Position numbers and translations under genes: made by a program. The notes under the pieces were generated by a model. The model was not told the DNA's origin. It searched no databases and saw only the letters and a list, made by a program, of their open reading frames with translations. From assembly GCA_965226495.1 (NCBI GenBank), contig OZ245365.1, forward strand, positions 1,923,516 through 1,987,515: 64,000 nt of DNA. The letters are read 5' to 3'. Below, piece after piece: positions 10,264 through 35,951 of this stretch. Position 1 is the stretch's first letter. Each line of letters starts with the position of its first letter. This DNA comes from Candidatus Marinacidobacterales bacterium. Its GTDB lineage: Bacteria > Acidobacteriota > Vicinamibacteria > Marinacidobacterales > DATDRI01.

Positions 10264-10893
10264 ATGATAGCGATTTTGGGAGCAAGTTCGGGCCTGGGAA
10301 GCGCTCAGACCTTGGAAATAGTGCCTTTTTACGGTTGGCAATTCGGCGGCGGGTTTGGTGTCGAAGACGGTCGTGTCGAGGTCAAGGCGGCCCCTGTTTT
10401 CGGGTTCTTGGTGGATGTGCGGGTGCGTCCGGATGCCGCGGTCGAGTTCATCTACAGCCGGCAACAGACGACGCTCGAGCTCAGGAGCACCGACGCCCTT
10501 CGGCCCAGCGCCGAGTTCTTGGACTTGAACGTCGAGTACTTCCAGGCGGGCGGGGTGTACGAGTTCTTGGGCGACGACGCAGAGTTTTTCGACGACGATG
10601 GCGACAAGCCCGCCGTGCGCCCGTTTATTGTACTGACCCTCGGCGCAACGCGGTTCAGCCCGAGCCTGGCTGGCGCAGGGAGCGATTGGCGTTTCTCGCT
10701 GAGCTTCGGTGGCGGCGTCAAAGTGTTTCTCTCCAGGCGGCTGGGCTTTCGCCTCGACGCCCGCGCTTGGCCCACATTTGTAGCGGGTGGTGGTGCCTTC
10801 TTTTGCTCGCTTCCGGGGGGATGCTTGTTTGCCTTTGGCGGCTCGGCATCGTGGCAGGCAAGCGGCACCGCCGGCCTGATCATCGCTTTTTAA
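10264..10893 (+). CDS. Outer-membrane beta-barrel protein (OmpW/porin-like)
   Basis: Signal peptide, alternating amphipathic beta-strand pattern, aromatic C-terminus (..GLIIAF). Confidence 0.4.
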   Translation: MIAILGASSGLGSAQTLEIVPFYGWQFGGGFGVEDGRVEVKAAPVFGFLVDVRVRPDAAVEFIYSRQQTTLELRSTDALRPSAEFLDLNVEYFQAGGVYEFLGDDAEFFDDDGDKPAVRPFIVLTLGATRFSPSLAGAGSDWRFSLSFGGGVKVFLSRRLGFRLDARAWPTFVAGGGAFFCSLPGGCLFAFGGSASWQASGTAGLIIAF

Positions 10894-11044: not shown

Positions 11045-11653
11045 ATGGATTTAACTCAGAAACAACAAGCCGTTTTCGATTACTTGAAGGCTTATCGGGG
11101 CGAGAACGGGCGACCTCCTTCCTATGAGGAAATCCGCGAGGAGTTCGGCTTCGCCTCTTTGAACTCGGTGCGGAAGCATCTGCAACAGCTTGAACGAAAA
11201 GGGTTTATCAAATCGCCCTGGGGGAACCAAAAAAGGGCCCTGGAGATTGTTTCCGACCAGCCGGAAGCGGCCGCCGCCGTTTCATTGCCCCTGCTAGGTA
11301 CGGTCGCGGCCGGTGGGCCTCTCGAAGTCTCAGAGGTTCCCGAGACCATCGATGTCCCTGAAGTTCTTATCGGTCGGGGCGAGCACTTCGCCTTGAAGGT
11401 AACCGGCGACAGCATGGTGGACGACGGCATTCATGAAGACGATTTACTGATCGTGCAGAGGCGAGAGAGTGCCGAGCCCGGCCAGACAGTGGTGGCGCTG
11501 GTTGAAGGCGAAGCCACCGTCAAGCGGTTCTACCGGCACGGGGAGCGAATCGAGCTCCGTCCGGCCAATCCGAATTACTCTCCCCTGATTGTGGGAGAGG
11601 AGGCAGTCCGCATCCGAGGAATCGTCGTCGGGCTGATACGAAAATATGCCTAG
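11045..11653 (+). CDS. lexA: LexA repressor (SOS regulator)
   Basis: N-terminal winged HTH. C-terminal S24 peptidase with cleavage site (VAAGGP), Ser (GDSM) and Lys (TVKRF) catalytic motifs. Confidence 0.9.
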   Translation: MDLTQKQQAVFDYLKAYRGENGRPPSYEEIREEFGFASLNSVRKHLQQLERKGFIKSPWGNQKRALEIVSDQPEAAAAVSLPLLGTVAAGGPLEVSEVPETIDVPEVLIGRGEHFALKVTGDSMVDDGIHEDDLLIVQRRESAEPGQTVVALVEGEATVKRFYRHGERIELRPANPNYSPLIVGEEAVRIRGIVVGLIRKYA

Positions 11654-12827: not shown

Positions 12828-13475
12828 GTGGCTCGCCAGAGTTTTGTCACCACCCGTCTCTCTGCCGATAGCAAGTTACGAGTCGTCGCTCCCTGGGGGG
12901 TTCCTCAAATTGCCGGGCGCCTAGTAGAGCTTTCCGGAACCGGAGCGACGGCGACGCTGACCGCGGCTTTCGGGCTGGTGCTCGAGGCGCAATGGAGGGG
13001 CGAGCCCGTCGCCTGGATCACATTGCCGTCGAGCACATTTTTCCCGCCCGATGCTGCGGCGGGTGGTATCGACTTGGATTCCCTCGCGGTCGTTCGTGCC
13101 CGTGATTCTTACACTGCGGCGCGATCGGCGATGCAACTCGTTCGCTCGGGTGGGTTTGGACTCGTGGCGATTGACCTCGGCCCGAAGCCGGCCCCCGCAA
13201 GCATGGGACAAAAGCGCGTCGAATACACGTCCATTCCCACGTCGCTGCTGACGCGTCTAGTCGGACTGGCCAAGAAACACGACACCGCGGTCGTTGTCCT
13301 TACTGAAAAGCCGACCCATGCGAGCTCTCTCGGTTCCCTAGTTTCGCTGAGGGCAGAGGCTCGCCGGCCTCCAGCGGCTCCTTATCGCATCGAGCTCTCG
13401 GTTCTCAAAGACAAAAGACGCGGCCCGGGACAAGTACATCGGGAGACTTGCCGTGGTCCGGCTGGCATGTGTTGA
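12828..13475 (+). CDS. imuA: ImuA (SulA/RecA-fold mutagenesis cassette protein)
   Basis: Position immediately upstream of imuB-dnaE2. Motifs GRLVELSG.GA.ATLTAAFGLV.EAQWRGEPVAWI..VVRAR typical of ImuA. Confidence 0.7.
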   Translation: MARQSFVTTRLSADSKLRVVAPWGVPQIAGRLVELSGTGATATLTAAFGLVLEAQWRGEPVAWITLPSSTFFPPDAAAGGIDLDSLAVVRARDSYTAARSAMQLVRSGGFGLVAIDLGPKPAPASMGQKRVEYTSIPTSLLTRLVGLAKKHDTAVVVLTEKPTHASSLGSLVSLRAEARRPPAAPYRIELSVLKDKRRGPGQVHRETCRGPAGMC

Positions 13476-14940
13476 TGTTCCGGCGTTCCCACTCCAACTC
13501 CTCCTCCGGGAACATCCGGATTGGAAGGAGTTTCCGGTCGCCGTGGTTGCCGAAGATCGACCGAACTCTCCTCTGCTCTGGGTAAACGAGAAGGCTAGGC
13601 GAGCGCGCGTCCTCCCCGGGCAACGTTATGCCCAAGCGTTGTCGCTGTCGTCCGAACTAAGGGCCGGTACCGTTTCCCGTCATGAGATCGAAAAAGGCGT
13701 CGAGCTTCTCACCGATCGACTCCGTCATTTCACGCCGGAGGTGGAGCCGGGGCTCGACACGCCGGGCGTCTTCTGGCTGAATGCCCAAGGACTGGAGCGG
13801 CTCTACAAAAGCCTGGAGGACTGGGCGGGTGCGATCGGCAAAGATCTCCTGAAGGCTGGATTTTTATCCACCGTCGTCGTGGGCTTCACTCGCTTCGGGA
13901 CTTATGCGGTGGCCAAGTCCATCCTAGGAGTGAAGGTCTTCCAGGATGCCGGTGAGGAAAACCGGGTTGCCCGCCGTGTGAAGCTGGATCGTTTGGAGAT
14001 CGAGCCCGCGGTGCGTGACGCCCTGGATAAGCTCGGGGTTCGCACGGTTGCGGGTTTCCTCAAGCTTCCGGCCAAGGGACTCCTGAAGCGATTCGGCGTC
14101 GAAGCGCATCGGTTGTACCGTCTCGCCGCCGGAGATCTCTGGGCCCCTCTTCAACCTCATCCCGCCGTGGAGCCCCTCGAGCGCCAGTTCTTGCTGGATG
14201 CTCCGGACTCCGATTCCGAGCGCTTGTTGTTTCTCGTAAAAAGAATGCTGGACTCGCTTCTGGCGGAGTTGGTGCCGAAAAGCAAAGCGCTGACCGAGGT
14301 CGCGCTTCGCCTGGTTCTCGATCGCGAGGGAGAGTATGGAGAGCGGATTCGCACCGCGGCGCCGACCGTCGACAGCGCGCAGATCCTAGGACTCATCCGA
14401 CTGCGCCTGGAGTCTTTGCGACTCGATTCGGGCGTGGTGGCGCTCCACTTGACCGTTTGTGGAACGAAGGTTCTCCCTGAACAAGATCTTTTGTTCACCG
14501 AGAAACCGCGCCGCGATCTGGAGGCGGGCAGTCGCGCTCTTGCTCGTCTACGGGCAGAGTTTGGGGAGACGGTCGTGGTGCGCGCCCATTTGCAAAATAA
14601 CCATCTTCCTCAGGCGAGCTTCCGATGGGAGCCCATGGAAAAAACAACCATCCCTCATCCTCAAAAAAAGAGCAGTCCTCGTCTTCTGGTGAGAAGAATC
14701 TACGAAAGGCCACTTCTCCTTCCACATCGGTCCCGACACGAGCCCGATGGCTGGCTCTTGCGCGGGCTCGAGCACGGGCCTGTCCAAAAGTTCGTCGGCC
14801 CTTACGTTTTTTCCGGAGGTTGGTGGGCGGGTGGCGTCCACCGCGAGTATTACTTCGTGAACATGCTTCGCGGAGAGGTGCTTTGGGTTTTTTACGATCG
14901 AAAGCGACGTCGCTGGTTTCTGGAAGGACGCGTCGAGTGA
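13453..14940 (+). CDS. imuB: ImuB (catalytically inactive Y-family polymerase homologue)
   Basis: Y-family polymerase-like N-terminus ([17 protein letters not shown]..) and the conserved position between imuA and dnaE2. Overlaps imuA by 23 nt and dnaE2 by 4 nt. Confidence 0.85.
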
Positions 14941-17900
14941 CGTACGTGCCTCTCTGGTGCAAGACCAATGGCTCCTTCCTCGAGGGGGCGAGTCACCCGG
15001 AGGAGCTTGTCGAAGAGGCACAGCGTCTCGGCTTGCGCTCCCTCGCAGTCACCGATCGCGACGGTGTGTATGGCGTGGTGCGCGCCCATGTGAAAGCGAA
15101 AGAGATAGGTGTGCAGCTTCTCATCGGAGCGCAAGTGACGGTTGAGGACGATTCGGTCATTCTATTACTCGCTCAGAATCGTCGGGGTTACGCGAGTCTT
15201 TGCCGCCTCTTGACCGTTGGGCGACTCCGTTCGCCCAAAGGCGAGTCCTCGGTGAGTTGGGGTGAAGTTTACGAGCATCAGGACGGACTCCTTGCTCTTT
15301 GGGGAGGGGAGAGAAGTCTGTTGGTTGGGGAGCCGGATCCGGGGAGGGTTGCCGAGTCCTTACGGGAGGCTTTTGAGGATCGGCTCTACGCGATGGTAGT
15401 ACGACATCGCCGTGACACCGAGGCGCCTCAAGAGGCTCGACTGCGCGAGCGTGCCGTGCGCCACAAGCTTCCTATCGTTGCCGCGGTGGAGGTGCTCTAT
15501 CACACGCCCGAAAGACGGGATCTTCAAGATGTCTTGACCTGCATCCGTTACGGGTTGACGGTGCGGACGGCGGGCCGGCAAACCAAGCCGAACGCCGAGC
15601 ACGCGTTGAGGACGCCTTTTTCTTTCGATCAGCTCTTCGCCGACGATCCCTCGGCGGTGACGAGGACCGAAGAGATCGCGGCGCGTTGTGATTTTTCACT
15701 GGACCAGCTTCGCTACCGTTACCCTGCCGAACGCTTACCGGATGGCACAACCTCTGCGGAATGGCTTTATCGATTAACTATGGAAGGTGCACGTCGTCGT
15801 TATCAGGGCGACGTGCCTTCCAGCGTGCTGAGGCAAGTCGAAAAAGAGCTTCGCGTTATCGAGGAGCTGGATTACTGCGGATATTTCCTGACCATGTATG
15901 AGATCGTGCAATTTTGCCGCGCAAATGAAATTTTGTGTCAGGGCCGTGGCTCGGCTGCGAACTCGGCGGTTTGCTACTGCTTAGGCATCACCGCGGTGGA
16001 CCCGGTACGGATGGGGCTCTTGTTCGAACGCTTCTTGTCGAAAGATCGCAACGAGCCTCCGGACATTGATCTCGACATCATGCATCAGAGAAGGGAAGAG
16101 GTCATCCAATTCGTTTATAACAAGTATGGTCGGGATAAGGCAGCGATGGTGGCGAATATTATCCGTTATCGGGCCCGCTCGGCGGTGCGCGACGTTGGGA
16201 AAGCTCTGGGACTTCCGGAGACCTCTCTCGACCGGCTGGCCAAGGTTCTCTCTCATTACGACGGGGTTTCCTCACAAGCGCTTCGTCATGCAGGCCTCGA
16301 TCCGGAAATCCCGATCAATCAGCACTTGTTGAGACTGACTTACGAGATTCAAGACTTTCCGCGGCATTTGTCGATCCATCCGGGAGGGTTCCTTCTCGGC
16401 CACGAGCCGGTCCATGACATCGTTCCCATTGAGAATGCCACCATGGCCGACCGCACGGTGATCCAGTGGGACAAAGACGATATCGAGTCGCTGGGGCTCT
16501 TCAAAGTGGATCTCCTGGGGCTCGGTGCGCTCACTCAGCTCGACCTTTGCTTTCGCTTGCTGAAGAGACATCGAGGTATCGATCTCTCCATGGCTACTAT
16601 CCGCAAGGACGATCCCGAGACTTTCGACATGATTTGTCGCGCCGAGACAGTGGGCGTCTTCCAGATAGAAAGCCGTGCGCAGATGGCGATGCTGCCCCGC
16701 CTCCGGCCGCGTCATTATTACGACCTCGTCGTCGAGGTGAGTATCGTGCGGCCCGGTCCTATCACGGGAGGGATGGTGCATCCTTATCTTCGCCGGCGGA
16801 ACGGAGAAGAGCCGGTGGAATACCCTCATCCGTCTTTGAAACCGGTGCTCGAGAAGACGCTGGGGGTGCCTCTCTTCCAGGAGCAAGTGATGCGCCTGGC
16901 GGTAGTGGCGGCTGACTACACTCCCGGTGAAGCCGATCAACTGCGACGCGACATGGCGGCGTGGCGACGCACCGGACGCATCGAGAAGCACCGCGAGCGA
17001 CTGATTTCACGAATGCAGGCGAAGGGGATCAAGCCGGAGTTTGCAGAGAGGGTCTTCGAGCAGATCCGGGGTTTCGGCGAATACGGTTTTCCCGAGAGTC
17101 ATGCAGCGAGCTTCGCCTTGGTCGCCTATGCCGCGGCCTATCTTTTGAGACATCATCCGGCCGAGTTCACCTGCGCTCTCCTGAACGCTCAGCCGATGGG
17201 TTTTTATTCGCCGGCAACCATCATCGACGACGCCAAGCGGCGTGGCGTCGAGGTCCGCCCGGTGGATGTTCGTCTGAGCGACTGGGATTGCACGTTGGAG
17301 AAAATTGACCCCCTCACCCCGACCCTCTCCCCACAGGGGAGAGGGAGAAATTCGATTCCGTATGCGGTACGAATGGGACTCCGCTACGTCAAGAGTCTCG
17401 GCGAGAGAGATTGGAAGCGTGTCGACGCCGCTCGTCGCAAACGGATTTTTGTTTCTATCGAAGACTTCGTTCGCCGGACTCGATTGAACGAGGGGGCTCT
17501 CCAAGTTTTATCCGAAGCCGGTGCCTTCGAGGGGTTCGGCAAGGTGAGAAGAGCCGCCCTCTGGGACGTACGCGGTCTGGCTCGCGAGCCTTCACCGACT
17601 CTGCCTCTCGAAAGCACAGAGGAAACTCCGGAGTTTCCGAAGCTCGACGATTTCGAGACCATCGCATGGGATTACCACGCGTCTTCACATAGCACCCGGG
17701 GGCATCCTCTGGGGCCCTTGCGAGAAGCCCTCCGTGCGCAAGGCCTACCGGATGCGGAGACGGTCTCGAAGATGAAGCACGGAAGAAAGATTCGTTACGC
17801 AGGATTGGTGATCTGCCGACAGCGCCCGGGGACTGCCTCCGGCGTCACCTTCATGACCCTAGAAGACGAGACCGGCTTCGTGAATCTCGTAATTTGGACG

Positions 17901-18065
17901 AGAGTCTTCGAACGTTATGCGGTGCTGGTCAAGACAGCATCCTTTCTTGGCGTCACCGGCAAGCTCGAGGCCCGCGACAATGTCGTGCATCTCATCGCCG
18001 ACGAGCTATGGGTGCCCAGTCTCAAAGTGCAACCAGAGCACGGGCGAAGCCGGGATTTTCACTAA
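14937..18065 (+). CDS. dnaE2: Error-prone DNA polymerase DnaE2 (ImuC)
   Basis: PHP domain (SFLEGAS), polymerase III alpha core motifs, OB fold near the C-terminus. Likely start is GTG at 14937; the ORF-track M at 14625 is upstream in-frame read-through. Confidence 0.9.
17311..17350. repeat. Small palindromic (REP-like) element inserted in-frame within dnaE2
   Basis: CCCTCACCCCGACCCTCTCCCCACAGGGGAGAGGGAGAAA, with hairpin CCCTCTCCCC-ACAG-GGGGAGAGGG. Encodes ..[13 protein letters not shown].. in the gene frame and SPHRGEGE in another frame. An inverted copy is at 58936-58975. Confidence 0.6.
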
Positions 18066-18181
18066 ATACTAAATAAGGACTCGTACGACATCGGCGCTGC
18101 CACTCATCAGCCTATTGGGACCGTTGTGGACTCGCAGTATCCGGTTGAATTCTCGAGCCGCCTCGGTTAAACCTTCTGCCT

Positions 18182-18454
18182 ATGCGCGAGGTGCAGGCAG
18201 GCATGAAAGGGATCGTAGGCGCCTGCGTCGCGAGCATTCTGTTGACAGCGACGCTCGCAGCCCAGGAACTGTCCTCCCAATCGCGCCCCGCGGCGACGCA
18301 GCGAGGCGCGCCGCTGTATCGCAATCATTGCGCGCGCTGCCATGGGCTCCAAGGATTGGGTGGTACCGGACCGAGCCTGACTCGGCCGGTTCTGCGCCAC
18401 GCCCGAAGCGATAAGGTGGAGCCCCAGCACGGCAGGAGCCGTGACTTTCACTAG
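18182..18454 (+). pseudogene. Truncated class I c-type cytochrome remnant fused in-frame to a dnaE2-tail copy
   Basis: Signal peptide then CARCHG haem-binding motif and GGTGPSL. Ends after ~85 aa with [11 protein letters not shown], which is the dnaE2 C-terminal motif. Confidence 0.4.
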
Positions 18455-18564
18455 CCGTCGGTCACGGAAATGCGACGCTCCTGCTCATCACGGGGAGCCC
18501 GAAAGCACCTCCCGCAAGAACTCTTTGACACCCTTCCCGCCCGTGAGACGAAGAAGAATAGGGC
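18418..18564. repeat. Direct repeat copy 1 (~145 bp) beginning with a dnaE2 3'-end-like segment
   Basis: Near-identical to 18633-18776, with a 2-bp indel in the tail-like part. Confidence 0.9.
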
Positions 18565-18632
18565 CATCACTCGAAACATCCAGCTCGAACTTTAGGAACG
18601 GACAGCATTGACGTTCGAGGCCGAGATGAACT

Positions 18633-18776
18633 GGAGCCCCAGCACGGCAGGAGCCGACTTTCCTAGCCGTCGGTCACGGAAATGCGACGCTCCTGCTCAT
18701 CACGGGGAGCCCGAAAGCACCTCCCGCAAGAACTCTTTGACACCCTTCCCGCCCGTGAGACGAAGAAGAATAGGGC
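18633..18776. repeat. Direct repeat copy 2 (~145 bp) beginning with a dnaE2 3'-end-like segment
   Basis: Near-identical to 18418-18564. Provides the current 3' end of the minus-strand Cys-rich ORF. Confidence 0.9.
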
Positions 18777-19166
18777 GGGTAAAGCGAATTCATAACCCGC
18801 AGGAAGCTCGCGAATCTCCTCGACTGCGGATCGCAGCTGTCCCATCAATGCTTGGTGACGCTCTTGCTGCTCGGCGTTTAACGCCTGCCGTTCGCAGGCG
18901 AAAGAGGGTTCGGCCTCGATGGCTACTTCCCCTTCATCTTGTTCTGGCGGCTCAGAGTCGGTCCGGGGATGTGCCAGCGCTCGCACGAGGGCGAGAGCTC
19001 GCGATTGCGTGTCCTCGTCGCTTAGGAGGGCCTGACAATAGGTGCACGTGCACTCATCGAGCCGACTTTGGATTCCCGCATCCACCCGTTCCGCAGCCCA
19101 ACTGAACATACCCAAGCTCAACACTCCGAAGGCGACCAGCGCCAACCACTTCAAGCTTTGCGTCAT
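18663..19166 (-). CDS. Cys-rich membrane-anchored protein (CTCTYC motif), co-transcribed with MerR-family regulator. 3' end replaced by repeat copy 2
   Basis: N-terminal TM/signal segment, DECTCTYCQ cysteine cluster, acidic region. The last ~40 codons lie inside the direct repeat. Confidence 0.4.
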   Translation of the reverse strand: MTQSLKWLALVAFGVLSLGMFSWAAERVDAGIQSRLDECTCTYCQALLSDEDTQSRALALVRALAHPRTDSEPPEQDEGEVAIEAEPSFACERQALNAEQQERHQALMGQLRSAVEEIRELPAGYEFALPALFFFVSRAGRVSKSSCGRCFRAPRDEQERRISVTDG

Positions 19167-19207
19167 TTCTCTCCTCCAATCTTGTCAGGAGAGGGCCGCC
19201 GTCGTTG

Positions 19208-19597
19208 CTAGATATCGAGCGCCACCAGGGCTGAGCACGGTGCCTGATCGTCTCTGCAGCGGCAGTTCTGGAGAAGCGCATTGAGCTCCTCGCGCATTGA
19301 CTTCAGTAGTCCCACCTTCTCGTCGATACTTCGAATCTTCGCTTCCGCAATCGCTCGCACCTCGGCACCGCTGTGACGTTGCTCCTCCCGCAGCCGGATT
19401 AACTCCTTGATCTCCTTGAGGGTGAAACCGACTTCCTGGCTGCTTTTGATGAAACGCACCCGTCTCAACGCATCTTCCGGATAATCTCGGTACCGCGACG
19501 CAAGTCGATTCGGCTTCCTCAGGAGCTCACGGCGCTCGTAAAACCTTATGGTCTGGACGTTGACGTTGGCCCTCGCCGCCATCTCACCGATTCGCAT
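19208..19597 (-). CDS. MerR-family metal-responsive transcriptional regulator (CadR/PbrR/ZntR-like)
   Basis: N-terminal MerR HTH (MRIGEMAARANVNVQTIRFYERRELL), coiled-coil, C-terminal C-x-C-x6-C metal-binding cluster. RBS GGGGGAGAG upstream of ATG at 19597. Confidence 0.85.
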   Translation of the reverse strand: MRIGEMAARANVNVQTIRFYERRELLRKPNRLASRYRDYPEDALRRVRFIKSSQEVGFTLKEIKELIRLREEQRHSGAEVRAIAEAKIRSIDEKVGLLKSMREELNALLQNCRCRDDQAPCSALVALDI

Positions 19598-19613
19598 TTT
19601 TTCTCTCCCCCTT

Positions 19614-19645
19614 AATATGCATCCTATACCTAGGTATAGAGTCAA
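19614..19645 (-). promoter_or_regulatory. MerR-type promoter/operator: -35 TTGACT, 20-bp spacer containing perfect 16-bp palindrome CTATACCTAGGTATAG, -10 CATATT
   Basis: Read directly on the minus strand upstream of the MerR gene. A 19-20 bp spacer with a dyad operator is the hallmark of MerR-family promoters. Confidence 0.7.
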
Positions 19646-19670
19646 GGACAAATTGAAGTTTTTTGGTGAT

Positions 19671-19751
19671 GTGCACTTGATCGCCGACGAGCTATGGACG
19701 CCCCCCCTCAAGGTGCAGCTTCAGCGCGGCAGGAGCCGGGACTTTCGCTAA
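19671..19751 (+). repeat. Orphan copy of the dnaE2 3' end (encodes [26 protein letters not shown]-stop)
   Basis: About 75% identical at nucleotide level to 17984-18065. Same reading frame, ends with a stop. Confidence 0.85.
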
Positions 19752-19770
19752 ACGATGCCGAGAGAGTGCG

Positions 19771-22039
19771 CTACTGAATGTAGCCCAGCGCGCGCAGCTG
19801 CTCCATCGTCTTAGCGTCGAGCTCGGGAGTGGTAGTTTCTGCTTCCACTTTGGGGCGGGACAGATATTTCTGGGCAATGTCCTTCAGTCGCTCGAACTCG
19901 GACAGTCGATTCGGCGATTGCTCTTGGCTCCACTCGCGGCGTCGGCGGTAGACTTGGGAACCATCGTCTCTGTCCGAGCCCAGGTCGAGAAAGGAATAGG
20001 TTCCATCCTCTCGAGTGTAGAGCTTTTTGTCGCCGCGCCACGCGGCGGTCGTGCGTTCGAGTTGATACGCGTCGCTCGAATGGCTGAAAGCCACGTCGGG
20101 GCCGCGGCGGGCGCCGGTCACCAAACCGAGCAAAGAGCGGCCGTCCATCGTGGGGGCCTGGATGTGGTTCAGTTCAAGAAGGGTCGGCAAGACGTCGACG
20201 AGTTGGACGTTTGTGGTGACGCGTCTCCCTTCGGGAAAGTGTGTCCGCCCAAAAAAGATGAGAGGGACTCGTGTCTCCGATTGCTCCAGCGTCGCACCGT
20301 GAGGCACCGTGAGGCCCTGCCGGAAGTTCTCGCCGTGATCGGAAGTGAATGCGATGAGCGCACGGTCCAGTACACCGCTGGCGCTTAGCTCGTTCATCAG
20401 AGCACCGAAGGCCTCGTCCACGTACCGGATCTCTCCGTCGTAGGCAGCAATCTCTTCGGTCGTTTGTTCGTCGTCGAACGCCGTCGCCCAGCCGTCGGGG
20501 TCTCCATAAGGAAAGGTGCGGGTCGATGAGGTGGGCGTAGAGTAGCAATGGTTCATCACGGTGGCGCTCGATAGCCGATTTCAAGCCGGCCTGCACGGCT
20601 CGGGCATCGCTCTGTGAAGAGCTGTCCAGGCTCCGATCTACGACTCGATCGAAACCGCTATGCAGGTTCGAGCTCCAACCGGCGTGCGCATTCGCGATGA
20701 CACTCACCGTGACGAAGCCCGCGTCCCGGAAGAGCCGTCCCAGGCTCGGGATGCTCGTCGACAGCGCCTGGCCGTGCTCCCCGGCACGGTGAGCATCGGG
20801 TGCCAGGCCCGTGAACAAAGAAGTGACGGACGGTTTGGTCCAAGTGGCCTGAGAGTAGCAGTTCTCGAAGAGGGTAGCGCTTCGTGCGAATGCCTCGAGG
20901 TTGGGGCTGGTTGGTCTGGAATACCCATATGCTGAAAGATGATCGGCCCTCAGTGTGTCCACGAGGTAGACGATGACGAGAGGAGCTTCCGGTGAGTGTT
21001 CGGCCACCAGAGGTGAGCCAAGGTAGTAGACCCCATCGGCTTCGTCGGTCCTCATGGTGAAGCGGAGATCGACGGAGCGGCCTCCAAAACGAGTCAGCTC
21101 GACGGTGTGATCCGCCCATGCTTCGGTGTCGATGGCCCCTCGCAACAAGGACTCCCATGTGCCGTTGGCCCGGATGTCCACATCGAGGTTCGCCGGGGCG
21201 CCCCCCGCGCGGCGGGAGGTCGAGAAATGAAGTCGGCTCCGCGCCGCGAGCTCCAAGCCAAACACGAGCTCCGTGTCTCCACCGCCAAAAACGAAGCTCG
21301 GCTGAAGTGTGTCTCCGACGACCGCATCCTCGCGTACGGGCCCAACCCGACTGTAATCGGGCTCGTACAGAAGCTCGATCTCGTGAAGCTCAAAGCCACC
21401 GGAGACGTCCATCGGTGCGAACACGAGGTGGGCAGCCGTCCGTTCGCCGCCAGATACGTTCAAAGTTCTGACGTCGATGAGGTAAACATGCGCCTTTCCG
21501 TCCGTGAAAAGGCCGATTTTACGTTGAGGTTCCGTAGAATAGATGGAAAGAAGTTCCTCCGCCCTTTCGGCCGATCCCACGACGTTTAGCAGCAGATTCG
21601 CCGGCTCTTGTTTTGCCGGCGAGGCCGCGAGTTTCACCCTGATGTGGGCCACCGAGCTCAAGTCATAGCTTTTCTGGTTCCATAACTTGGAGCCGCCGTG
21701 GAGAGTTCCGGTGATTGGGGTGCTACTCGTGAGGACGACCCGTGCCGACGTTCGGAGCTCGCTGCTTGCAAGGTAGGACTCGCTCCGCGTTGCGAGCTTG
21801 CGCTCGGGCAGTTTCGAATCGGCGAGATCGGTGAGGCGCGTTACCCTCGGTTTGGGGAGCTCGGGGGAACCGCAGGCGGAAAGCGACACGATCAGCAGGA
21901 TGACTACCCATCGGATCACGCGCCGGATTATACCGCAGTTCAAATTTGGTATAGCATAGGCTGCCGCAGGACCCATGTGTGCCTGTGACCCGAATTTACA
22001 GTCCATCCAGAACGAAACTGATGGTGGATTAGCCCACAT
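19771..22039 (-). pseudogene. Sulfatase-like (alkaline phosphatase superfamily) secreted hydrolase, frameshifted near 20550
   Basis: N-terminal half (20174..22039) has signal peptide, DTLRADHL and TWTKPSVTSLFTG motifs. C-terminal half (19771..20559) has the SDHGE motif, in a different frame. Confidence 0.65.
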
Positions 22040-22123
22040 GGGAGTGGAGTTCGGCGAGCCGGGAGCGCTGCCTTAACGGCGCGAATCCTGAAACAAGCAT
22101 CGAGACAAAAGGAGGAAAGGACA

Positions 22124-22450
22124 GTGGCAAACTACCTACTCATCCAGTCTCGTGACCCGTTCGAGTACAACGAGGTGACTCGTGACTTTGAACTGGCCGC
22201 GAGTCTGGCCAAAGATGGCAACACGGTCACTTTATTCTTGGTTCAAAACGGGGTCCTGCCCGCCCGCAAAAACGCGAAGGGGAGCGGCCTCGAGGATGTG
22301 GTGACGAGTGGCGTCGAAGTTTTGAGCGATGAGTTCTCGCTTCGCGAGCGAGGCATTCATCACGACGATCTGGCTGCCGGAGTCAAGGCTGCCTCGTTGG
22401 ATAGCGTCGTTGACCAACTGGCAGAAGGCCGCAAGGCCATCTGGTTCTGA
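22124..22450 (+). CDS. DsrE/DsrF (TusD-like) sulfur-relay family protein
   Basis: Roughly 110 aa DsrE-like fold pattern with strong RBS (AAAGGAGG). Confidence 0.55.
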   Translation: MANYLLIQSRDPFEYNEVTRDFELAASLAKDGNTVTLFLVQNGVLPARKNAKGSGLEDVVTSGVEVLSDEFSLRERGIHHDDLAAGVKAASLDSVVDQLAEGRKAIWF

Positions 22451-22461
22451 GGAGATAAAAC

Positions 22462-22875
22462 ATGGCTGACAGGAAAACCTTGACCTTCTCGATCATGGAT
22501 GGCCCCTTTGAACAGGCGCGTACGGTAACGGTTTTTCGCCTCCTCGATATCGCTGCTCGCCGTGGCTACAACGTGCACGTCTTTGCCTACGAGGGAGCGG
22601 TGAGCCTCCCGTTTGCCAAGCAGTCAAAGCATGCGAACACAGTGCACGGTTGCGATGTCGAAGAAGAGGACCATCCTCTTTCCAAGGACTGGATCGCCGC
22701 TCTCATGAAGACCGCCCAGGAGAACGGCGGCAAGATCGACTGGATCAACTGCGGCCTCTGTGTCGACGAGCGCGGAGTCAACGAGGCCATCGAAGGCGTT
22801 CGGCGAGGCACTCCCGGTGATTTGTGGAGCTCTGCCAATGCATCCGACAACACTCTCGTCATCGGTACCCGCTAA
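22462..22875 (+). CDS. DsrE-family protein with conserved Cys
   Basis: 137 aa, DsrE-like N-terminus (TLTFSIMDGPFEQ..) and Cys-containing loop. Confidence 0.55.
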   Translation: MADRKTLTFSIMDGPFEQARTVTVFRLLDIAARRGYNVHVFAYEGAVSLPFAKQSKHANTVHGCDVEEEDHPLSKDWIAALMKTAQENGGKIDWINCGLCVDERGVNEAIEGVRRGTPGDLWSSANASDNTLVIGTR

Positions 22876-22889
22876 AAAGGAGCAAATCC

Positions 22890-23270
22890 ATGAAAGCACT
22901 GCAAGTGATTGAATCGGCCTATCGCTGTACCGTTGAAGAGCAGGACGACCCGATCGTTTGGATCACCCATGCCATGAAGGGTGCGGGCGCCGACCTAGGC
23001 GTGCTCCTTCGCGGCAACGCCGTCAACTACGCGGTCGCGGGGCAAGATGCCTCGGGGCTCGTTTTTGGCGGGCTCGCGCAGCAACATCCGCCACAGATCG
23101 ACCGAGACGTTAAATCGTTGACCGAGAAAGGAATCTCTGTTTACGTGGTGAAAGAAGACGCCGCTGAGCGAGGCATCGGAGAAGCGGACTTCATCGCTGG
23201 TGTGGAACACGTGTCGCGTACGAAATTAGCCAAGCTCTTTGGAGACTACGACCAAGTTTGGCACTGGTAG
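22890..23270 (+). CDS. DsrE/DsrF/TusC-like small protein
   Basis: Third small paralogue-like ORF in the same orientation. Assignment is weaker. Confidence 0.45.
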   Translation: MKALQVIESAYRCTVEEQDDPIVWITHAMKGAGADLGVLLRGNAVNYAVAGQDASGLVFGGLAQQHPPQIDRDVKSLTEKGISVYVVKEDAAERGIGEADFIAGVEHVSRTKLAKLFGDYDQVWHW

Positions 23271-23340
23271 AAGTTAGCGCCGGCCGATTTCGGCTCACCC
23301 TGACTCTAACCCGCATACTTCGCTACCGACGTGAGTGTGG

Positions 23341-25587
23341 CTAGAAATCGAAGAGAAAGGTGAATTTAGCGATCAACGCGCGGTCCAAGCGCGCGCCGGT
23401 GATGGCGTCGCGGCGCTCGTTGTAGACGAGGAAGAAATTGGACAGCGGCCGGTGAATCCAATTGAAACGAAGGTTGCTGCTCCATTCCTCGAGGACGGTG
23501 TTGTATTGAATGAGGCCATTGAGAAACATGCTGTTGCTAAAGGAGTAGTTGAACTGGCTGGTCACCAAATGGGTAATGAAGCTTCCCTCCACCAAATCCA
23601 CGTCATTCGTCGAAAAGATAACTTGGGCGTTGAGGCTGGCGCCCAACCTTACCGTTCCGCCGACCGTCCAATCCCGCTTAGTTCCGGAGAAGAAGTCGCC
23701 GTAGCCGGCCCGGAAGTTGCCCGAGAGCGTCCGGCTAGGGTCGGTGTAGTAGAAGGCGAAGTACTCCGTGAAGTTATAGAGACCGGCGCTGACTACTGTC
23801 GTGGGGTGGATCTCGAAGGGCTCGAGCGTGAGATCCAGGGTCTCGTTTCGGCCGACTTGGATGATGCCGCCTTTTTGGAGGTAGAACGGAATGTGGATGT
23901 TGAAATAGCGGTTAACCAGCTGCCCCTGTTGATCGGTGAAATAGTCGAACTCAGTATGGGCATTGATCTCCCGCATCCATCCTCGCCAGAACGGCTGCCG
24001 AATATGGAATCCGAGGTACGTGCTGGAGCGCCTGACGCCGACCCGTGGGGCGAAACCAACCTCAGGATTGAAATTGTCCTGCAGGCTCGACAGGGACGTG
24101 CGCAAATTGACGAAACTCCCGTCGAAATTGAACGCGAGCCGCCCAGCTAGGTCGTTCCCCTCGAGTCCTGGTGTCTCCGTCTTCGCGATGTACCCGAGGA
24201 TCTCTACCTTGGAGCCCAACCGGAAATCGGCGTCGACGCCGAAGCTTCGATTGTACTGCGGTGAATCCATGGTCGCCCGGTTGATGAACATGGCGCCCAC
24301 ATTGGAGGTCGCGAAGACGTCGCGCTTGACGCGGACCACGGTGAAGTTCTCCTCGTTAACAAAGGGCTCGAGGGCATCGGTTTGAATAGTGAGGAAACCG
24401 AGCTGGTAAGGCCCCGCCCGCCCGGTCAAGCGCGCTCCTGCGATAATGGGAATGGGCGTTCCAATCTCCGAAAGCCCAATGCGACGGCTGAAAAACAAGA
24501 GGAGGTCGTCACCTCGTGCCTGGGCGCCGCGGATGTTGGAGCCGACCAGGAGAGCGCCGAACTGGGCGCGGGCCAACTGAACCCTCTGTTTCTCTGGCGA
24601 CCCGAAGCGGAAGACCCCGGAGTTCTCGAGGAAGAACTCCCTCTTCTCGGGAAGAAAGAGGCTGAAACGTGTCAGGTTGACTTGCTGCACGTCGGCCTCG
24701 ACCTGTGAGAAGTCGGTATTCACAGTCAAATCCAGCGTGAGACCGGTCCCGATTCCCAGCTTGGAATCGAGTCCGCCGTCGATGTCTGTTTGCCGGCCCG
24801 TTATCCGCCTATCGGTCAGATCCCCTTTTGCGTACGGCGTCACCTTGATGTTTCGCCCGGGTTTGGTGCCGTGAAGATTGTCCAGCGTGCCGGCCAGCGA
24901 AACGCGGGGGAGCCGGTGAATCCGCGGCAGGGGTGACCAGTAGCTCTCCTCGTTCAAGCGCCGGACTCTTCGCACGAAGTTGATCCCCCAGGTTTGAACC
25001 TGCTGGTCACGGAAATTCAAGGACTTGAACGGTATGGCTATCTCGGTGCTCCAGCCTCGTGCGCCCACGGTACTGGCCACATGCCAAACGGCATCCCAGT
25101 TCACGTTGTACTCGGCGCCCTCGTTGAAAAATTGCGCGTCGTACTTCGCCCCTCCCGGATTAGTTTGGAAGATGTATCCGTTCCGATGGTCGAGGAACGT
25201 ATCGAGGACCACGCCGAAAGCATCACCGGAGCTGATGTTGAAATCGCGTGTGATGTCATTGAGTGTGATGCTGCCCGGATCGTCATCGAGGGCCATCACT
25301 CCCAAATAGAGAGTATCGTCGTCGTAAACGACTTTGACCAGGGTATCGAAGGTCGCGGGTTGGCCTTCGTGAGGCTCGTTTTGAATGAATCCCGAGGCTG
25401 CGGGTGCCTCTTCCCAAACTGCCTCGTCGAGCGAACCGTCGATGACGATGGAGCTGCCTGTACGAGTTGCCGATAGTCTTCGCTCCGTCCTCTCAGCTTT
25501 CCGGCTCGTGTTCTGCTGAGCGGTGAGGATCCCTGCGAAGCTGAAAGTTATCAGGGAGTAACCTAGGAGGCATCGGGCCCTCATCAA
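23341..25587 (-). CDS. DUF5916 / CBM9-like domain outer-membrane protein
   Basis: Signal peptide, N-terminal carbohydrate-binding-like region (DGSLDEAVWEEA), long beta-rich C-terminus ending in an aromatic residue. Confidence 0.6.
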   Translation of the reverse strand: MMRARCLLGYSLITFSFAGILTAQQNTSRKAERTERRLSATRTGSSIVIDGSLDEAVWEEAPAASGFIQNEPHEGQPATFDTLVKVVYDDDTLYLGVMALDDDPGSITLNDITRDFNISSGDAFGVVLDTFLDHRNGYIFQTNPGGAKYDAQFFNEGAEYNVNWDAVWHVASTVGARGWSTEIAIPFKSLNFRDQQVQTWGINFVRRVRRLNEESYWSPLPRIHRLPRVSLAGTLDNLHGTKPGRNIKVTPYAKGDLTDRRITGRQTDIDGGLDSKLGIGTGLTLDLTVNTDFSQVEADVQQVNLTRFSLFLPEKREFFLENSGVFRFGSPEKQRVQLARAQFGALLVGSNIRGAQARGDDLLLFFSRRIGLSEIGTPIPIIAGARLTGRAGPYQLGFLTIQTDALEPFVNEENFTVVRVKRDVFATSNVGAMFINRATMDSPQYNRSFGVDADFRLGSKVEILGYIAKTETPGLEGNDLAGRLAFNFDGSFVNLRTSLSSLQDNFNPEVGFAPRVGVRRSSTYLGFHIRQPFWRGWMREINAHTEFDYFTDQQGQLVNRYFNIHIPFYLQKGGIIQVGRNETLDLTLEPFEIHPTTVVSAGLYNFTEYFAFYYTDPSRTLSGNFRAGYGDFFSGTKRDWTVGGTVRLGASLNAQVIFSTNDVDLVEGSFITHLVTSQFNYSFSNSMFLNGLIQYNTVLEEWSSNLRFNWIHRPLSNFFLVYNERRDAITGARLDRALIAKFTFLFDF

Positions 25588-25794
25588 AGTGTCTTATCGC
25601 ATACTGTATGCCGCCCGTCAATGAGTTTGCGGCCCCGGTCGCACGGTGGCACCGCCGACCGAATCTGGCGCCCTTCTTGCGTAACTCCACTGAAACGCGA
25701 GAACTCCGTCCTTTTTCGAAAGTCCAACAGAAGCGAGTAGTGGGTTTTGTCGGCCATCCCTGTGGGGTTTCGGCCACGTACAGGAGCGCGAAAA

Positions 25795-26559
25795 ATGAAC
25801 GAAAACGAAGTCCAACCCTCGGAAGACCTCCGATTCGACAAAGTAGACGGGAACGCCGACCAACTCGCGTGCGAGTTTTGTGAGAGCCAGATCCACGATG
25901 CTTACTTCGACGTGAACGGTCAGACGGCCTGTCAAAAATGCCGCTATACAGTCGAGGAGCAACGGAACAACCGTTCGTCTGCGGGCCGATTCCTTCGCGC
26001 TTTCTTCGCAGGAAGCGTGGCGGCAGTCGTAGGCGCCGGCATCTACTATGCGGTCTTGGCGCTTACAGGATATGAGTTCGGGCTCCTGGCGATCTTGGTG
26101 GGTTTCATGGTCGGCGTGGCCGTCAACTGGGGCTCTTACGCTCGCGGTGGTTGGGTGTATCAAGCACTCGCAGTGAGCCTTACGTACGCGGCGATAGTGA
26201 GTACGTACGTTCCGTTCGTTTTCGAGGCATGGGAAGAAGAGGAGCCCGCGTTCGACGCGCAATCTGTCGATTCCATCGGCGCCGAGGGCGCCCAGGAGGA
26301 AGAAGTGATTTCCTTCAACACGCCCGCGGGAGCGCTCGAAGCCGAGGAAGGACCGCTGACGCCGGGTGATTTCTTCGTCGGGCTGGTTGCTTTCGTCTTT
26401 CTCGTGGCGGCGATACCTTTTCTTGCCGGTGTCGAGAACATCATCGGCCTTCTCATCATCGGATTCGGACTCTACGAGGCATGGAGGCTCAACCGCTATC
26501 GGGCTTTGATGATCGAGGGGCCGTTTAGGGTCGGGCAAGATCGAGCCAGCAGCCCCTAG
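25795..26559 (+). CDS. Zinc-ribbon (CxxC..CxxC) membrane protein, function unknown
   Basis: CEFCES..CQKC followed by four predicted TM segments. Confidence 0.4.
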   Translation: MNENEVQPSEDLRFDKVDGNADQLACEFCESQIHDAYFDVNGQTACQKCRYTVEEQRNNRSSAGRFLRAFFAGSVAAVVGAGIYYAVLALTGYEFGLLAILVGFMVGVAVNWGSYARGGWVYQALAVSLTYAAIVSTYVPFVFEAWEEEEPAFDAQSVDSIGAEGAQEEEVISFNTPAGALEAEEGPLTPGDFFVGLVAFVFLVAAIPFLAGVENIIGLLIIGFGLYEAWRLNRYRALMIEGPFRVGQDRASSP

Positions 26560-26592
26560 CCTTCTGCGTTCAGCGACGGGGCGCTCAGCTGT

Positions 26593-27186
26593 TTACTTGG
26601 CAAGCGCGGTCTTGCGAAAGGCGAAGTACAGAGACTCCTCGCACATGTCAGCAACGTCTTTTTGAGACGCGAACGGCCACTCTAGCACCGCTCGACGTGC
26701 CAACTGCTCGGAAATATCCCGCTCGCGGATCTTGTCCGCGAGCATCTGAGATACATCGCCGCTGTCGCGAAGAGTTAATCCGCGTAATAGTCGAGTGCGC
26801 ACGATGAGGACATCTTCGAGGTTCGCGCGCAAGTCCTGCCTCAAGGCGGAAGCCGCCCCGGCGGAGACCGCACCGTCGGGGAGCAACCGCTCGATGCGAT
26901 CTGCAAGCTCGGGCGCCACTCCCAAGATATAGAGCTCTTCCAACCTGTCGCCTTGTTCTCTCGTTACGACGGTTTGTCCTCGCTCGACGACCTCGATCAA
27001 GGAGTCGACCGAGAATGTCAACTGGTCGTAACGGGCTTGCGCCTTGGGTTGCATGAAGAGCACGTAATACAACACCAAGAATACGGCCAATCCGAATGTG
27101 CCGGTGAGCTGCATTGCCACCGACCAAGCTTCCGGCAATCCAAGAGTTCCGAGCCGGGGCTTGGTTGATTCGTCGTTGTTGTTCAT
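26593..27186 (-). CDS. Membrane-anchored hypothetical protein
   Basis: Single N-terminal TM segment, no recognisable motifs. Confidence 0.35.
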   Translation of the reverse strand: MNNNDESTKPRLGTLGLPEAWSVAMQLTGTFGLAVFLVLYYVLFMQPKAQARYDQLTFSVDSLIEVVERGQTVVTREQGDRLEELYILGVAPELADRIERLLPDGAVSAGAASALRQDLRANLEDVLIVRTRLLRGLTLRDSGDVSQMLADKIRERDISEQLARRAVLEWPFASQKDVADMCEESLYFAFRKTALAK

Positions 27187-27374
27187 TGCACACCTCCGCA
27201 GGAACCCCTGACCGATCCCAGTGTAGCGCTCGGAGAGTCCTCGTGTCGGTGACCGGTGTCCTAATCCTCGGAGTTTAGAAATGAAATGGAGGGGATTGCA
27301 GATTGCAACATGCGGGCTAGATCACTTCGCTCGGAACGAGAAGGGAGGAGAATCGGGGTGTCGGAGGAGACTTT

Positions 27375-28058: not shown

Positions 28059-28074
28059 GACGGGAGGGGTGTTG

Positions 28075-35941: not shown

Positions 35942-35951
35942 TCCGCGTCCA

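Follow-up and report, generated by a model that had tools for sequence, protein, structure and literature searches.

Partial copies of the dnaE2 3′ end behind an error-prone polymerase gene: a probable evolutionary scar

In the window analysed here, a 64-kb stretch of DNA, the error-prone polymerase gene dnaE2 is followed by further partial copies of its own 3′ end. The question raised by this locus is whether these copies mark site-specific integration into the end of the gene, as proposed in the initial annotation, or whether they reached their positions in another way. The gene belongs to a cassette of the order lexA-DUF72-imuA-imuB-dnaE2, in which LexA and DUF72 are encoded upstream of the imuA-like gene and the dnaE2 GTG start overlaps the imuB stop. 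DnaE2 carries the Pfam domains PHP, DNA_pol3_alpha, finger, HHH_6 and OB, and the dnaE2 gene call of the sister contigs is likewise 1042 aa long. The same gene order was also observed in L081, L084/85 and L090. The features of the region are the following.

12828-13475, plus strand: imuA-like gene, RecA-like/ImuA domain match
13453-14940, plus strand: imuB, IMS (Y-family) domain match
14937-18065, plus strand: dnaE2, error-prone DNA polymerase, intact, 1042 aa, GTG start at 14937
17985-18065, plus strand: T0, live dnaE2 3′ end; its distal 54 bp (18012-18065) are an outlier allele
18066-18181, no strand: spacer following the live end (type I flank); its initial ~22 bp share homology with the sequence after dnaE2 in L090
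18182-18412, plus strand: truncated cytochrome c gene, signal peptide and CxxCH, first 77 codons; Pfam/NCBIfam match to the N-terminal part only
18413-18454, plus strand: T1, last 41 bp and stop of a former dnaE2 end, joined to its original downstream flank
18451-18564, minus strand: R1, 3′ coding end of intact orf187 (a 187-aa ORF in sister assemblies); would-be stop at 18490-18492
18628-18668, plus strand: T2, equal to T1 minus 3 bases
18633-18773, plus strand: T2+R2 patch, 141 bp copied from 18416-18564 in place of 28 bp of orf187, specific to this assembly
18663-19166, minus strand: orf167, which is orf187 broken by the patch; secreted, Cys-rich, family not assigned; identical to the public protein P0005
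19208-19597, minus strand: merR-family regulator of heavy-metal type, MerR_1 and MerR-DNA-bind domains
19612-19645, minus strand: putative MerR-type promoter/operator, with the palindrome CTATACCTAGGTATAG at 19624-19639, read from sequence
19671-19751, plus strand: T3, all that is left of Tb, an old pseudogene fragment of the dnaE2 3′ end (~215 bp)
19771-22039, minus strand: frameshifted sulfatase gene bordering T3, two overlapping ORFs, both PF00884

The locus was compared with sister assemblies and with three related species. The usable relatives were found by exact-protein look-up; scans of genome and metagenome contigs gave relatives of at most 68% identity only, and a DnaE2 homologue search missed the full-length proteins of the clade, with P0013 (82%) offering only 204 bp of flank.

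All four tails listed in the initial annotation are present where it had placed them, in one orientation. Tail motifs of 29 nt and 18 nt were each observed twice, with 0.00 and 0.09 occurrences expected in shuffles, so that chance does not explain the copies. A generic dispersed repeat was also rejected, since the 64-kb window holds no further tail copy and, in related loci, the only copies are those flanking merR-orf187. T0 and T3 are 77% identical over 82 nt and have in common the exact 18-mer ATCGCCGACGAGCTATGG, which contains a weak dyad (CTCaTCG-C-CGAcGAG); T1 and T2 begin 39 bp further in and do not contain it. The lengths of the remnants are irregular (41, 75 and ~215 bp).

The downstream copies had been described as closer to each other than to the in-gene copy, and this holds for the last 54 bp of the tail. 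In this part, T0 shares 64-76% identity with each of the other tails (74% with T1), compared with ~88% for the rest of the gene, whereas T1 and T3 are 83% identical. When T0 is compared with L085, identity falls from ~88% to 67% within 18012-18065. T1 groups with the L085 and L087 copies of Ta (the gene end of which T1 would be the trimmed remnant), and T3 with the L087 copy of Tb. Divergence between Ta and Tb is 14-16%, and their identity in L085 reaches 91% over the last 54 bp. All tails encode closely similar peptides, typical of this clade only. Third codon positions account for 66-83% of the differences between tails, as in comparisons of live ends with each other, with the exception of comparisons involving T3 (30-60%). 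This bias suggests that much of the tail divergence dates from a time when the copies still encoded protein. However, the two Tb orthologues also show it (63%), which requires gene conversion and weakens the codon-position test; gene conversion may thus confound third-codon bias as a test of the allelic origin of the remnants.

Different DNA was found behind dnaE2 in sister lineages, in agreement with the earlier view of the copies as displaced dnaE2 3′ ends at a repeatedly remodelled junction. In L084/85, merR-orf187 directly adjoins dnaE2, the live end lying 23 bp from the orf188 stop, and Tb is present. In L090, a Fic/Pro-racemase/DctP block follows dnaE2, with one tail and no merR module. 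DctP was also seen in L087, where a 75-bp Ta remnant behind dctP is accompanied by Tb and the live dnaE2 end lies off the contig. The dctP gene of this junction lacks dctQM, and the relatives have dctPQM operons far from dnaE2. Displaced ends thus number 0 in L090, 1 in L084/85 and 2 in the window (T0 live, T1 and T3 displaced).

Two kinds of flank meet in the window. The DNA behind T0 is of the L090 type, with a weaker match in L089 (82% DnaE2 identity), in which a secreted-protein gene lies 76 bp after dnaE2 and the contig ends. The DNA behind T1 is of the type found at the live end of L085: T1 and the sequence that follows it can be aligned both to the L085 live dnaE2 end with its flank and to the remnant in L087, at a flank identity of 79-100%. 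Between T0 and T1, the cytochrome c fragment matches PF13442/PF00034 through its N-terminal part alone. Its in-frame fusion to T1, noticed in the initial annotation, is present as a 90-aa ORF made up of 77 cytochrome c codons and the last 13 codons and stop from T1. The fragment is absent from L084/85 and L090, and no homologue of it was found after dnaE2 in any of the ~170 loci compared.

On the right-hand side, Tb has the same position upstream of merR in three lineages (window, L085 and L087) and is therefore old. In L085 and L087, it comprises 155 bp of clear and ~60 bp of degenerate homology (FFTLEDEKG...ISTRGFEHYAVLVK...), with frame-breaking indels in both: a 3-bp deletion, an upstream frame change and a 1-nt gap near the end in L085, and a 1-nt deletion after ELWAPP in L087. 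The window copy is without 146 bp on the left, and the left edge of T3 is this simple deletion. Leftwards, Tb fades as a decaying pseudogene with no sharp att boundary. Beyond Tb, the DNA differs between species; the sulfatase gene, frameshifted in the window, is intact in L090 (737 aa).

The polymerase gene itself is a mosaic between lineages. A three-way informative-site scan (window, L090 and L085) placed 15226-16725 of dnaE2 nearer L090 and the rest of the gene nearer L085. The locus provides a clean, datable example of an imuA-imuB-dnaE2 mutagenesis cassette reshuffled by recombination between related lineages.

The best reading of the locus, which we consider somewhat better than an even chance, is that the gene end was displaced by homologous plus illegitimate recombination, or by single-crossover recombination, and that the displaced pieces then decayed by deletion. 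The tails would form a nested series of former dnaE2 3′ ends in which age increases with distance from the gene. Prior to the divergence of the three lineages, a piece of DNA with a 3′ portion of dnaE2 and merR-orf187 would have recombined into the resident dnaE2, providing the new gene end Ta and leaving the previous terminal ~215 bp (Tb, of which T3 remains) stranded beyond merR. On the window/L087 branch, a second new end (distal T0) would have arrived with its own downstream flank, consisting of the cytochrome c gene and probably of a larger block ending in dctP, and Ta would have been pushed downstream; later deletions would have shortened Ta to the 41 bp of T1 and truncated cytochrome c at codon 77. 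The last step, confined to this assembly, would have copied 141 bp comprising T1 and the orf187 end over 28 bp of orf187, giving T2 and R2. The three downstream copies, initially taken for three integration footprints, would then represent two old displacements and one recent patch, which may be artefactual.

We infer the mechanism of displacement from the sequence, and two routes can be envisaged. A crossover inside the conserved polymerase gene may have been accompanied by illegitimate joining on the opposite side (homology-facilitated illegitimate recombination, HFIR), or a recircularised fragment with a truncated dnaE2 end may have been integrated by a single crossover. Neither route would need a dedicated recombinase, and the resulting repeats would then undergo gene conversion and promote deletions. 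What displacement leads one to expect was found at this locus: an intact gene followed by 5′-truncated copies of its 3′ end on the same strand, different alleles, upstream tracts and intermediate states. Against it stand the related loci, none of which represents a donor genome with dnaE2 followed by cytochrome c, the layout of L087, which was reconstructed from that of L090, and the occurrence of two displacements at one gene end, which exceeds what is expected of rare illegitimate recombination. A RecA-dependent crossover would hardly be expected over only 41 bp, so T1 has to be explained by a later deletion. We regard the structure as an evolutionary scar and not as a functioning device or a working mobile element; dnaE2 and, in sister strains, merR-orf187 are likely to be the only parts with a function. 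The border of a conserved gene can thus gather captured DNA and dead gene ends without mobile-element machinery.

Site-specific recombinases make tandem islets at gene 3′ ends, such as the islands at tRNA and tmRNA genes and the SCC elements at rlmH/orfX, and recombinase-less remnants of tandem genomic islets are known. Following this model, the dnaE2 terminus would be an attB site occupied by tandem islets with a substitute gene end, the integrase would have been lost or be encoded elsewhere, and the copies would be decayed attL/attR sites. The likeness lies in the direct, same-strand partial gene ends that bracket discrete blocks of cargo, with new arrivals beside the live gene and old ones pushed outward; in addition, a complete promoter-merR-orf187 unit stands exactly between two tails in three lineages, the exact 18-mer of T0 and T3 has a weak dyad, three edges fall within ~25 bp of this 18-mer, and the DNA beyond Tb varies with the species. 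The clustering of several edges near 17985-18011 could hint at a preferred site. We nevertheless judge this origin unlikely. As already stated in the initial annotation, the window has no integrase: neither this nor another recombinase or a transposase was detected by Pfam domain among its ORFs that reach 180 aa or more. Gene calls with Pfam annotation for L081, L084/85 and L090, together with those of L172-175, include no recombinase within 10 kb of the query gene, and none was found in any of four lineages; the only mobile gene is an IS256-like transposase ~10 kb upstream, in some sister strains. Unlike att sites, the tails have neither an exact core common to all, T1 and T2 being without the 18-mer, nor a fixed outer boundary, Tb fading as a pseudogene and T3 being cut by a simple deletion. 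At its ends, the cargo consists of ordinary chromosomal genes that have been truncated (cytochrome c and a dctP without dctQM), and the merR-orf187 module of a lineage at 76% has no tail within 150 bp. Outside the clade, the site is unused: a duplicated own tail was found in 0 of 120 dnaE2 loci (62 from GTDB and 58 from metagenomes, each with at least 300 bp downstream and all at most 68% identical). In the titles and abstracts of the literature on dnaE2, attB and integrase, no report of dnaE2 as attB was found; one paper from this literature reports imuABC as cargo on an ICE. Site-specific integration is thus poorly supported. The displaced ends and the remodelled junction pointed out in the initial annotation stand, but the missing recombinase, the variable lengths, the truncated cargo and the 120 loci speak against integration as their cause. 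Duplicated gene ends are usually taken as att sites, and that reading would be wrong here. It is very improbable that the final ~80 bp of dnaE2 truly serve for the attachment of small cassettes without an integrase (such as promoter-merR-orf187), moved by a recombinase encoded elsewhere; if they were, an integron-like capture site would exist at the end of an SOS polymerase operon.

A purely local origin, in which the dnaE2 end and its neighbourhood were duplicated in tandem or dispersed form and then underwent drift, gene conversion and deletions with no incoming DNA, is also doubtful. T2/R2 shows that local copying can occur, or can be assembled, at this place, the closely similar tail peptides are typical of this clade alone, the 91% identity of Ta and Tb in L085 suggests conversion, and the Ta/Tb divergence fits a duplication shortly before the lineage split. 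However, the difference between distal T0 and T1 exceeds genome divergence in the clade and consists mostly of synonymous changes, the sequences that separate the copies (cytochrome c fragment, Fic-ProRac-DctP) do not duplicate anything in the neighbourhood, and dnaE2 carries inter-lineage mosaic tracts.

Other candidates were rejected. The window contains no tRNA gene for integration of the tRNA/tmRNA type; the tail DNA folds no better than shuffles (z from -1.7 to +0.4), which dismisses an attC-like or hairpin site; integron cassettes are not indicated either, as neither an integrase nor an attC-like fold was found; and the GC content of the cargo is within the local range, with no compositional anomaly indicating foreign DNA.

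By analogy, the displaced dnaE2 ends appear to resemble the orphan arrays of rhs and T6SS loci, whose strings of orphaned 3′ regions are explained by displacement in the account given in PMC5361080 (for rhs, Jackson et al. 2009, as cited there). In rhs orphan tips, cdiA-CT orphans and the T6SS effector-immunity arrays of Vibrio cholerae, an intact gene is likewise followed by same-strand, 5′-truncated copies of its own 3′ end, which are different alleles ordered by age; a homologous anchor in the conserved part and an illegitimate joint have been proposed, intermediate states occur in related strains, and no integrase is involved. In contrast, those arrays consist of polymorphic toxin tips and immunity genes under selection, whereas a function of the dnaE2 pieces (41-215 bp) is implausible, the co-transferred DNA is unrelated cargo (merR-orf187, cytochrome c fragment), and only two displacements in one small clade are concerned. 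HFIR offers a second parallel, as one-sided homology inserts foreign DNA beside the anchor. When HFIR was put to the test in E. coli, the majority of recombinants had arisen by single-crossover integration, with 109-950 bp of the gene end duplicated (PMC3240628), and the direct duplication flanking the insert has the geometry of Ta and Tb. That work used experimental plasmids in E. coli, whereas the present mechanism is deduced from sequence only, and the usual outcome of classical HFIR is a loss of recipient DNA, not its duplication.

The youngest element, T2 with its repeat, has to be considered separately. The exact direct repeat behind T1 and T2 is 114 nt long (18451-18564 and 18663-18776), and the ‘145-bp repeats’ earlier counted as cargo turned out to be the orf187 3′ end plus T1, recopied once. 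Neither T2 nor its 114-bp repeat occurs in L081, L082, L083 and L174, four independent assemblies from strains with ~99.97% identity, which have CCGCCGCCGCTAGAATTGTCGATGTCTC in place of the patch and an intact orf187. That the 141 bp of the patch stem from an error in the assembly or consensus of the long reads is a serious possibility, a little short of an even chance. Within 19 kb, this assembly alone contains no fewer than five other odd patches or perfect tandem duplications (2524-2602, 2702-2892, ~4717-4733, 4768-4853 and 6345-6472), against a background of 0-5 substitutions per aligned ~10-kb block, and two of them are stitched from non-adjacent pieces of an IS256-like gene. T2 is thus one of at least six such assembly-specific anomalies and may be artefactual. 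On the other hand, the variant stands in the public record as P0005, and its joints show 1-3 nt of microhomology each, T2 has lost 3 nt internally, and 2 nt are inserted at a distance of 8 bp; together with the small target loss, this fits end-joining repair with captured filler DNA. Furthermore, the sister assembly L174 carries a 190-bp duplication of its own, so such variants may be real in the population. As a caution, one of the four tail copies and the broken orf187 may exist in this assembly only.

Concerning the module itself, intact orf187 matched nothing in Pfam and NCBIfam, and the exact-protein look-up of orf167/P0005 and of a 443-aa ORF gave no match. The best NCBIfam matches of the merR product are MerR, ZntR, CueR and CadR, all under the equivalog cut-offs. 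A promoter scan with a 16-18-nt spacer returned nothing near merR, as expected for a long-spacer MerR promoter; the CTATACCTAGGTATAG palindrome lies between a TTGACT -35 element and a -10-like hexamer ~20 nt away.

The claim of the initial annotation that the 3' end of dnaE2 recurs three more times downstream of the gene was confirmed. The live end (T0) and the three partial tail copies (T1, T2 and T3) lie on the same strand, among the following features.

Features of the dnaE2 cassette and of the tail copies
11045-11653, lexA, upstream in the cassette with a DUF72 gene
12828-13475, imuA-like gene of the cassette
13453-14940, imuB, cassette gene
14937-18065, dnaE2 (1042 aa), with a GTG start overlapping the imuB stop
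17985-18065, strand of dnaE2, T0, the last 81 bp of the gene
18413-18454, strand of dnaE2, T1, only the last ~41 bp of the tail
18628-18668, strand of dnaE2, T2, only the last ~41 bp of the tail
between T2 and T3, minus strand, 167-aa ORF
between T2 and T3, minus strand, merR-family regulator of the heavy-metal type
19671-19751, strand of dnaE2, T3
19771-22039, sulfatase gene, frameshifted, next after T3

T3 is 77% identical to T0 over 82 nt and has an exact 18-mer (ATCGCCGACGAGCTATGG) in common with it. The tail motifs were each found twice, the expectations from shuffles being 0.00 and 0.09. No tail copy beyond T0-T3 was found in the 64-kb window, so that on this scale the tails are not a generic dispersed repeat. 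A 114-nt exact direct repeat follows both T1 (18451-18564) and T2 (18663-18776). In a 90-aa ORF, the final 13 codons and the stop come from T1, and codons 1-77 encode a c-type cytochrome signal peptide and a CxxCH motif, which matched the Pfam models N-terminally only.

Sister strains were retrieved by exact-protein look-up, giving four independent assemblies (L081/L172, L082/L173, L083 and L174), ~99.97% identical to the window. All four carry T0, T1, T3 and the cytochrome c fragment, and all four lack T2 and the second 114-bp repeat (R2). Among the three downstream copies first noticed, T1 and T3 are thus found in the sister strains as well, and T2 is specific to this assembly. The 141 bp at 18633-18773 correspond to 28 bp in the sisters (CCGCCGCCGCTAGAATTGTCGATGTCTC), where the gene on the minus strand is unbroken (orf187, 187 aa) and has its stop at the equivalent of 18490-18492. 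This ORF crosses a 63-bp unique stretch and enters the first 114-bp repeat in another frame. It follows from this structure that the "145-bp repeat", previously listed as cargo, actually consists of T1 together with the 3'-terminal coding part of orf187. The second copy of the repeat is a secondary one, which overwrote 28 bp of orf187 and broke the gene. The joints of this patch show 1-3 nt of microhomology, and T2 lacks 3 nt relative to T1, with a 2-nt insertion 8 bp away. A database protein from a public 6.34-Mb contig (P0005) is identical to the 167-aa ORF; the broken form is thus in the public record.

The baseline divergence between the window and its sisters is 0-5 substitutions per aligned ~10-kb block. 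In the first 19 kb, at least five further odd differences were found in this assembly alone.

Further differences present in this assembly only
2524-2602, 42-bp tandem duplication
2702-2892, 190-bp patch replacing 50 bp
near 4717-4733, 16-bp insertion
4768-4853, 85-bp patch replacing 8 bp
6345-6472, perfect 64-bp tandem duplication, which splits a Na/Pi cotransporter gene

Two patches are put together from pieces of an IS256-like transposase gene that are collinear but do not adjoin one another there. These patches and duplications are either repair scars or assembly artefacts. Since they occur in the same assembly, T2 and R2 are likewise either a scar of end joining or template switching, one of several in the window strain, or an assembly artefact, a reading to which we give somewhat less than an even chance.

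L174 has a tandem duplication of its own near position 9700 (window 10139-10328); it adds ~190 bp relative to the window, and a 253-aa ORF thereby grows to 316 aa. In addition, an IS256-family element (Transposase_mut/MULE, 416 aa, ~1.4 kb; L172 12208-13606) occupies the 7821-7829 site with a 9-bp target duplication in L172, L173 and L175, and is absent from the window and L174; this insertion is a polymorphism within the population.

The merR-orf187 pair (window 18490-19645; L081 10001-10995) has the look of an autonomous metal-responsive unit. A perfect 16-bp palindrome of MerR style, CTATACCTAGGTATAG (19624-19639), lies in the long spacer of the promoter. The MerR protein has cysteines at its C-terminus. 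The secreted orf187 product, which carries CTCTYC and CCPF motifs, matched neither a Pfam nor an NCBIfam family; close homologues were found, about a dozen in a collection of 5.8 billion proteins.

Further views of the locus, four in all, came from contigs of orf187 homologues and from one contig reached via DctP. In L084/L085, where the merR-orf188 region is 91.6% identical to the window at the DNA level, lexA-DUF72-imuA-imuB-dnaE2 is followed by convergent orf188-merR. The dnaE2 and orf188 stops are 23 bp apart, with no cytochrome c fragment between the two genes, and a second dnaE2 tail (Tb) is located 66 bp past the merR promoter. In L087/L088 (95% identical), merR-orf187 has Tb on one side and, on the other, a 75-bp tail remnant (Ta, a former dnaE2 end) directly after dctP. 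In L090, a 7.07-Mb contig 87% identical over the cassette, dnaE2 has a single tail without the merR module and is followed by a phosphodiesterase fragment, Fic, proline racemase and dctP; the ABC transporter, intact 737-aa sulfatase and DsrE genes beyond dctP are syntenic with the window. In L176 (orf187 at 76%), no tail was found within 150 bp of the orf187 stop. Tb in L085 and L087 shows clear dnaE2 homology over 155 bp, extends to the left as decayed sequence (FFTLEDEKG ...) and amounts to ~215 bp altogether, with frame-breaking indels. T3 of the window is what a left-hand deletion of 146 bp has left of this fragment.

From the old tail remnant as far as the arginine decarboxylase gene (~8 kb), the gene content of the two species differs entirely: a sulfatase, three DsrE genes, DUF5916 and peptidase M15 in the window (19752-28075), and an ABC transporter, TetR, a protein kinase, an amidohydrolase and DUF1761 in L084 (1040-9277), with no mobile-element gene in either interval. 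Genes bordering the remnant are decaying: the sulfatase is frameshifted in the window's species and intact in L090, and the ABC transporter adjoining Tb (L085 7420-9202) is split in two in L084/L085 and intact (619 aa) in L090. For the uncultured source bacterium, the nearest DnaE2 relatives in GTDB are only 63-68% identical, mostly from Vicinamibacterales and other Acidobacteriota MAGs; the top ten also includes one Binatia and two Syntrophobacteraceae MAGs.

The tails were compared by joint alignment and an identity matrix. The flank of T1, which is the 3' end of orf187, is also that of the L085 live end and of the L087 remnant (79-100% identical). The T0 flank differs from it, and its first ~22 bp match L090 DNA behind dnaE2. 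Over 17906-18011, all copies are 78-93% identical; the exception is the Ta remnant of L087, which aligns only in part (67-74%). T0 is the outlier over the final 54 bp, at 64-76% to every other tail, and the remainder of dnaE2 is ~88% identical to L085. The earlier remark that the downstream copies resemble each other more than the in-gene copy holds for these 54 bp. T3 clusters with Tb of L087 (96% in 17985-18011). The groupings and flanks argue that the chromosomal order of the tails is an age series, in which the gene itself would have the newest end (T0), T1 would be its predecessor on the old flank, and T3, past merR, would be older. Gene conversion among the copies is also suggested, since the L087 Ta remnant has motifs in common with T0 and Ta and Tb of L085, where Ta is the live end, are 91% identical in the last 54 bp.

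The dnaE2 gene (14937-18065) is a mosaic between lineages. Per 200 nt of the 15226-16725 interval, 20-29 informative sites unite the window with L090, the more distant species, versus 4-11 that unite it with L085; in the rest of dnaE2, imuA and imuB the pattern is reversed, the window being nearer L085. Differences among tail copies fall at third codon positions in 66-83% of cases, as in live-versus-live comparisons, except in comparisons involving T3 (30-60%). The bias points to functional genes as the source of much of this divergence, which would predate the juxtaposition of the copies. The two Tb orthologues show a 63% bias too, and gene conversion is thus a confounder of this test. The remnants are irregular in length (41, 75 and ~215 bp), and the cargo is ordinary chromosomal DNA with truncated genes at its ends, the cytochrome c being cut at codon 77. 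Beside dnaE2, dctP stands without dctQM; relatives have dctPQM operons that are complete and lie near a proline racemase gene, far from dnaE2. The GC content of the cargo is unremarkable, and the tail DNA folds no better than shuffles. As first reported for integrases in the window, no integrase, recombinase or transposase was found among its ORFs of at least 180 aa, nor in the annotated neighbourhoods of the related loci.

From the mosaic gene, the third-position bias, the irregular remnants, the truncated cargo and the lack of an integrase, we infer two displacement events at the dnaE2 end without a dedicated recombinase. Incoming DNA consisting of a dnaE2 3' portion and donor flank would cross over inside the conserved part of the gene, and its far end would be joined illegitimately; alternatively, a recircularised fragment could integrate via a single crossover. 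The resident end would thereby be displaced downstream. The cytochrome c fragment would be either the end of the incoming DNA or the product of a later deletion, possibly from a larger block like that of L090 and L087, as favoured by the T0-like motifs of the L087 remnant. The same displacement model has been proposed for rhs and T6SS loci, where orphaned 3' regions stand in strings (PMC5361080). In an E. coli test of homology-facilitated illegitimate recombination (HFIR), most products were single-crossover integrations duplicating 109-950 bp of the gene end (PMC3240628), the geometry of which is the same as at the dnaE2 locus.

The initial annotation had proposed site-specific integration into the end of the gene. 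Displaced gene ends and repeated remodelling of one site are upheld by the present data, and the complete merR-orf187 unit does lie exactly between two tails in three lineages. Furthermore, the exact 18-mer, which has a weak dyad, is found near three edges (17985, 17990 and ~18011). However, this 18-mer is absent from T1, which leaves no common core, a simple deletion accounts for one of the three edges, and the boundaries are not sharp. Neither a recombinase nor recurrence outside the clade was found (a second copy of the own tail occurs in 0/62 GTDB and 0/58 metagenome dnaE2 loci from other taxa), and the cargo is of the ordinary, truncated kind. The dnaE2 end is probably not an att site; we consider integration of this type unlikely, and a true site for trans-mobilised cassettes very unlikely. 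Purely local duplication followed by decay, of similarly low weight, would account for the similarity of all tails, but neither for the foreign-looking T0 end nor for the unrelated inserted DNA.

In its operation, the locus resembles 3'-end (C-terminal) displacement arrays and HFIR or single-crossover capture. Its likeness to integrase-made tandem islets is superficial, as their defining features were looked for and not found. The dnaE2 locus is a new instance of the displacement kind in an unusual gene rather than a new kind of system, useful both as a caution and as an evolutionary example.

Further pairs of long overlapping same-strand ORFs were observed at 35760-38046 and 54623-58911 (for example, 35760-36914 with 36667-38046, and 56195-57580 with 57286-58911). 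Because the Pfam domains within each pair differ, these are probably mostly over-extended ORF starts and not frameshifts.
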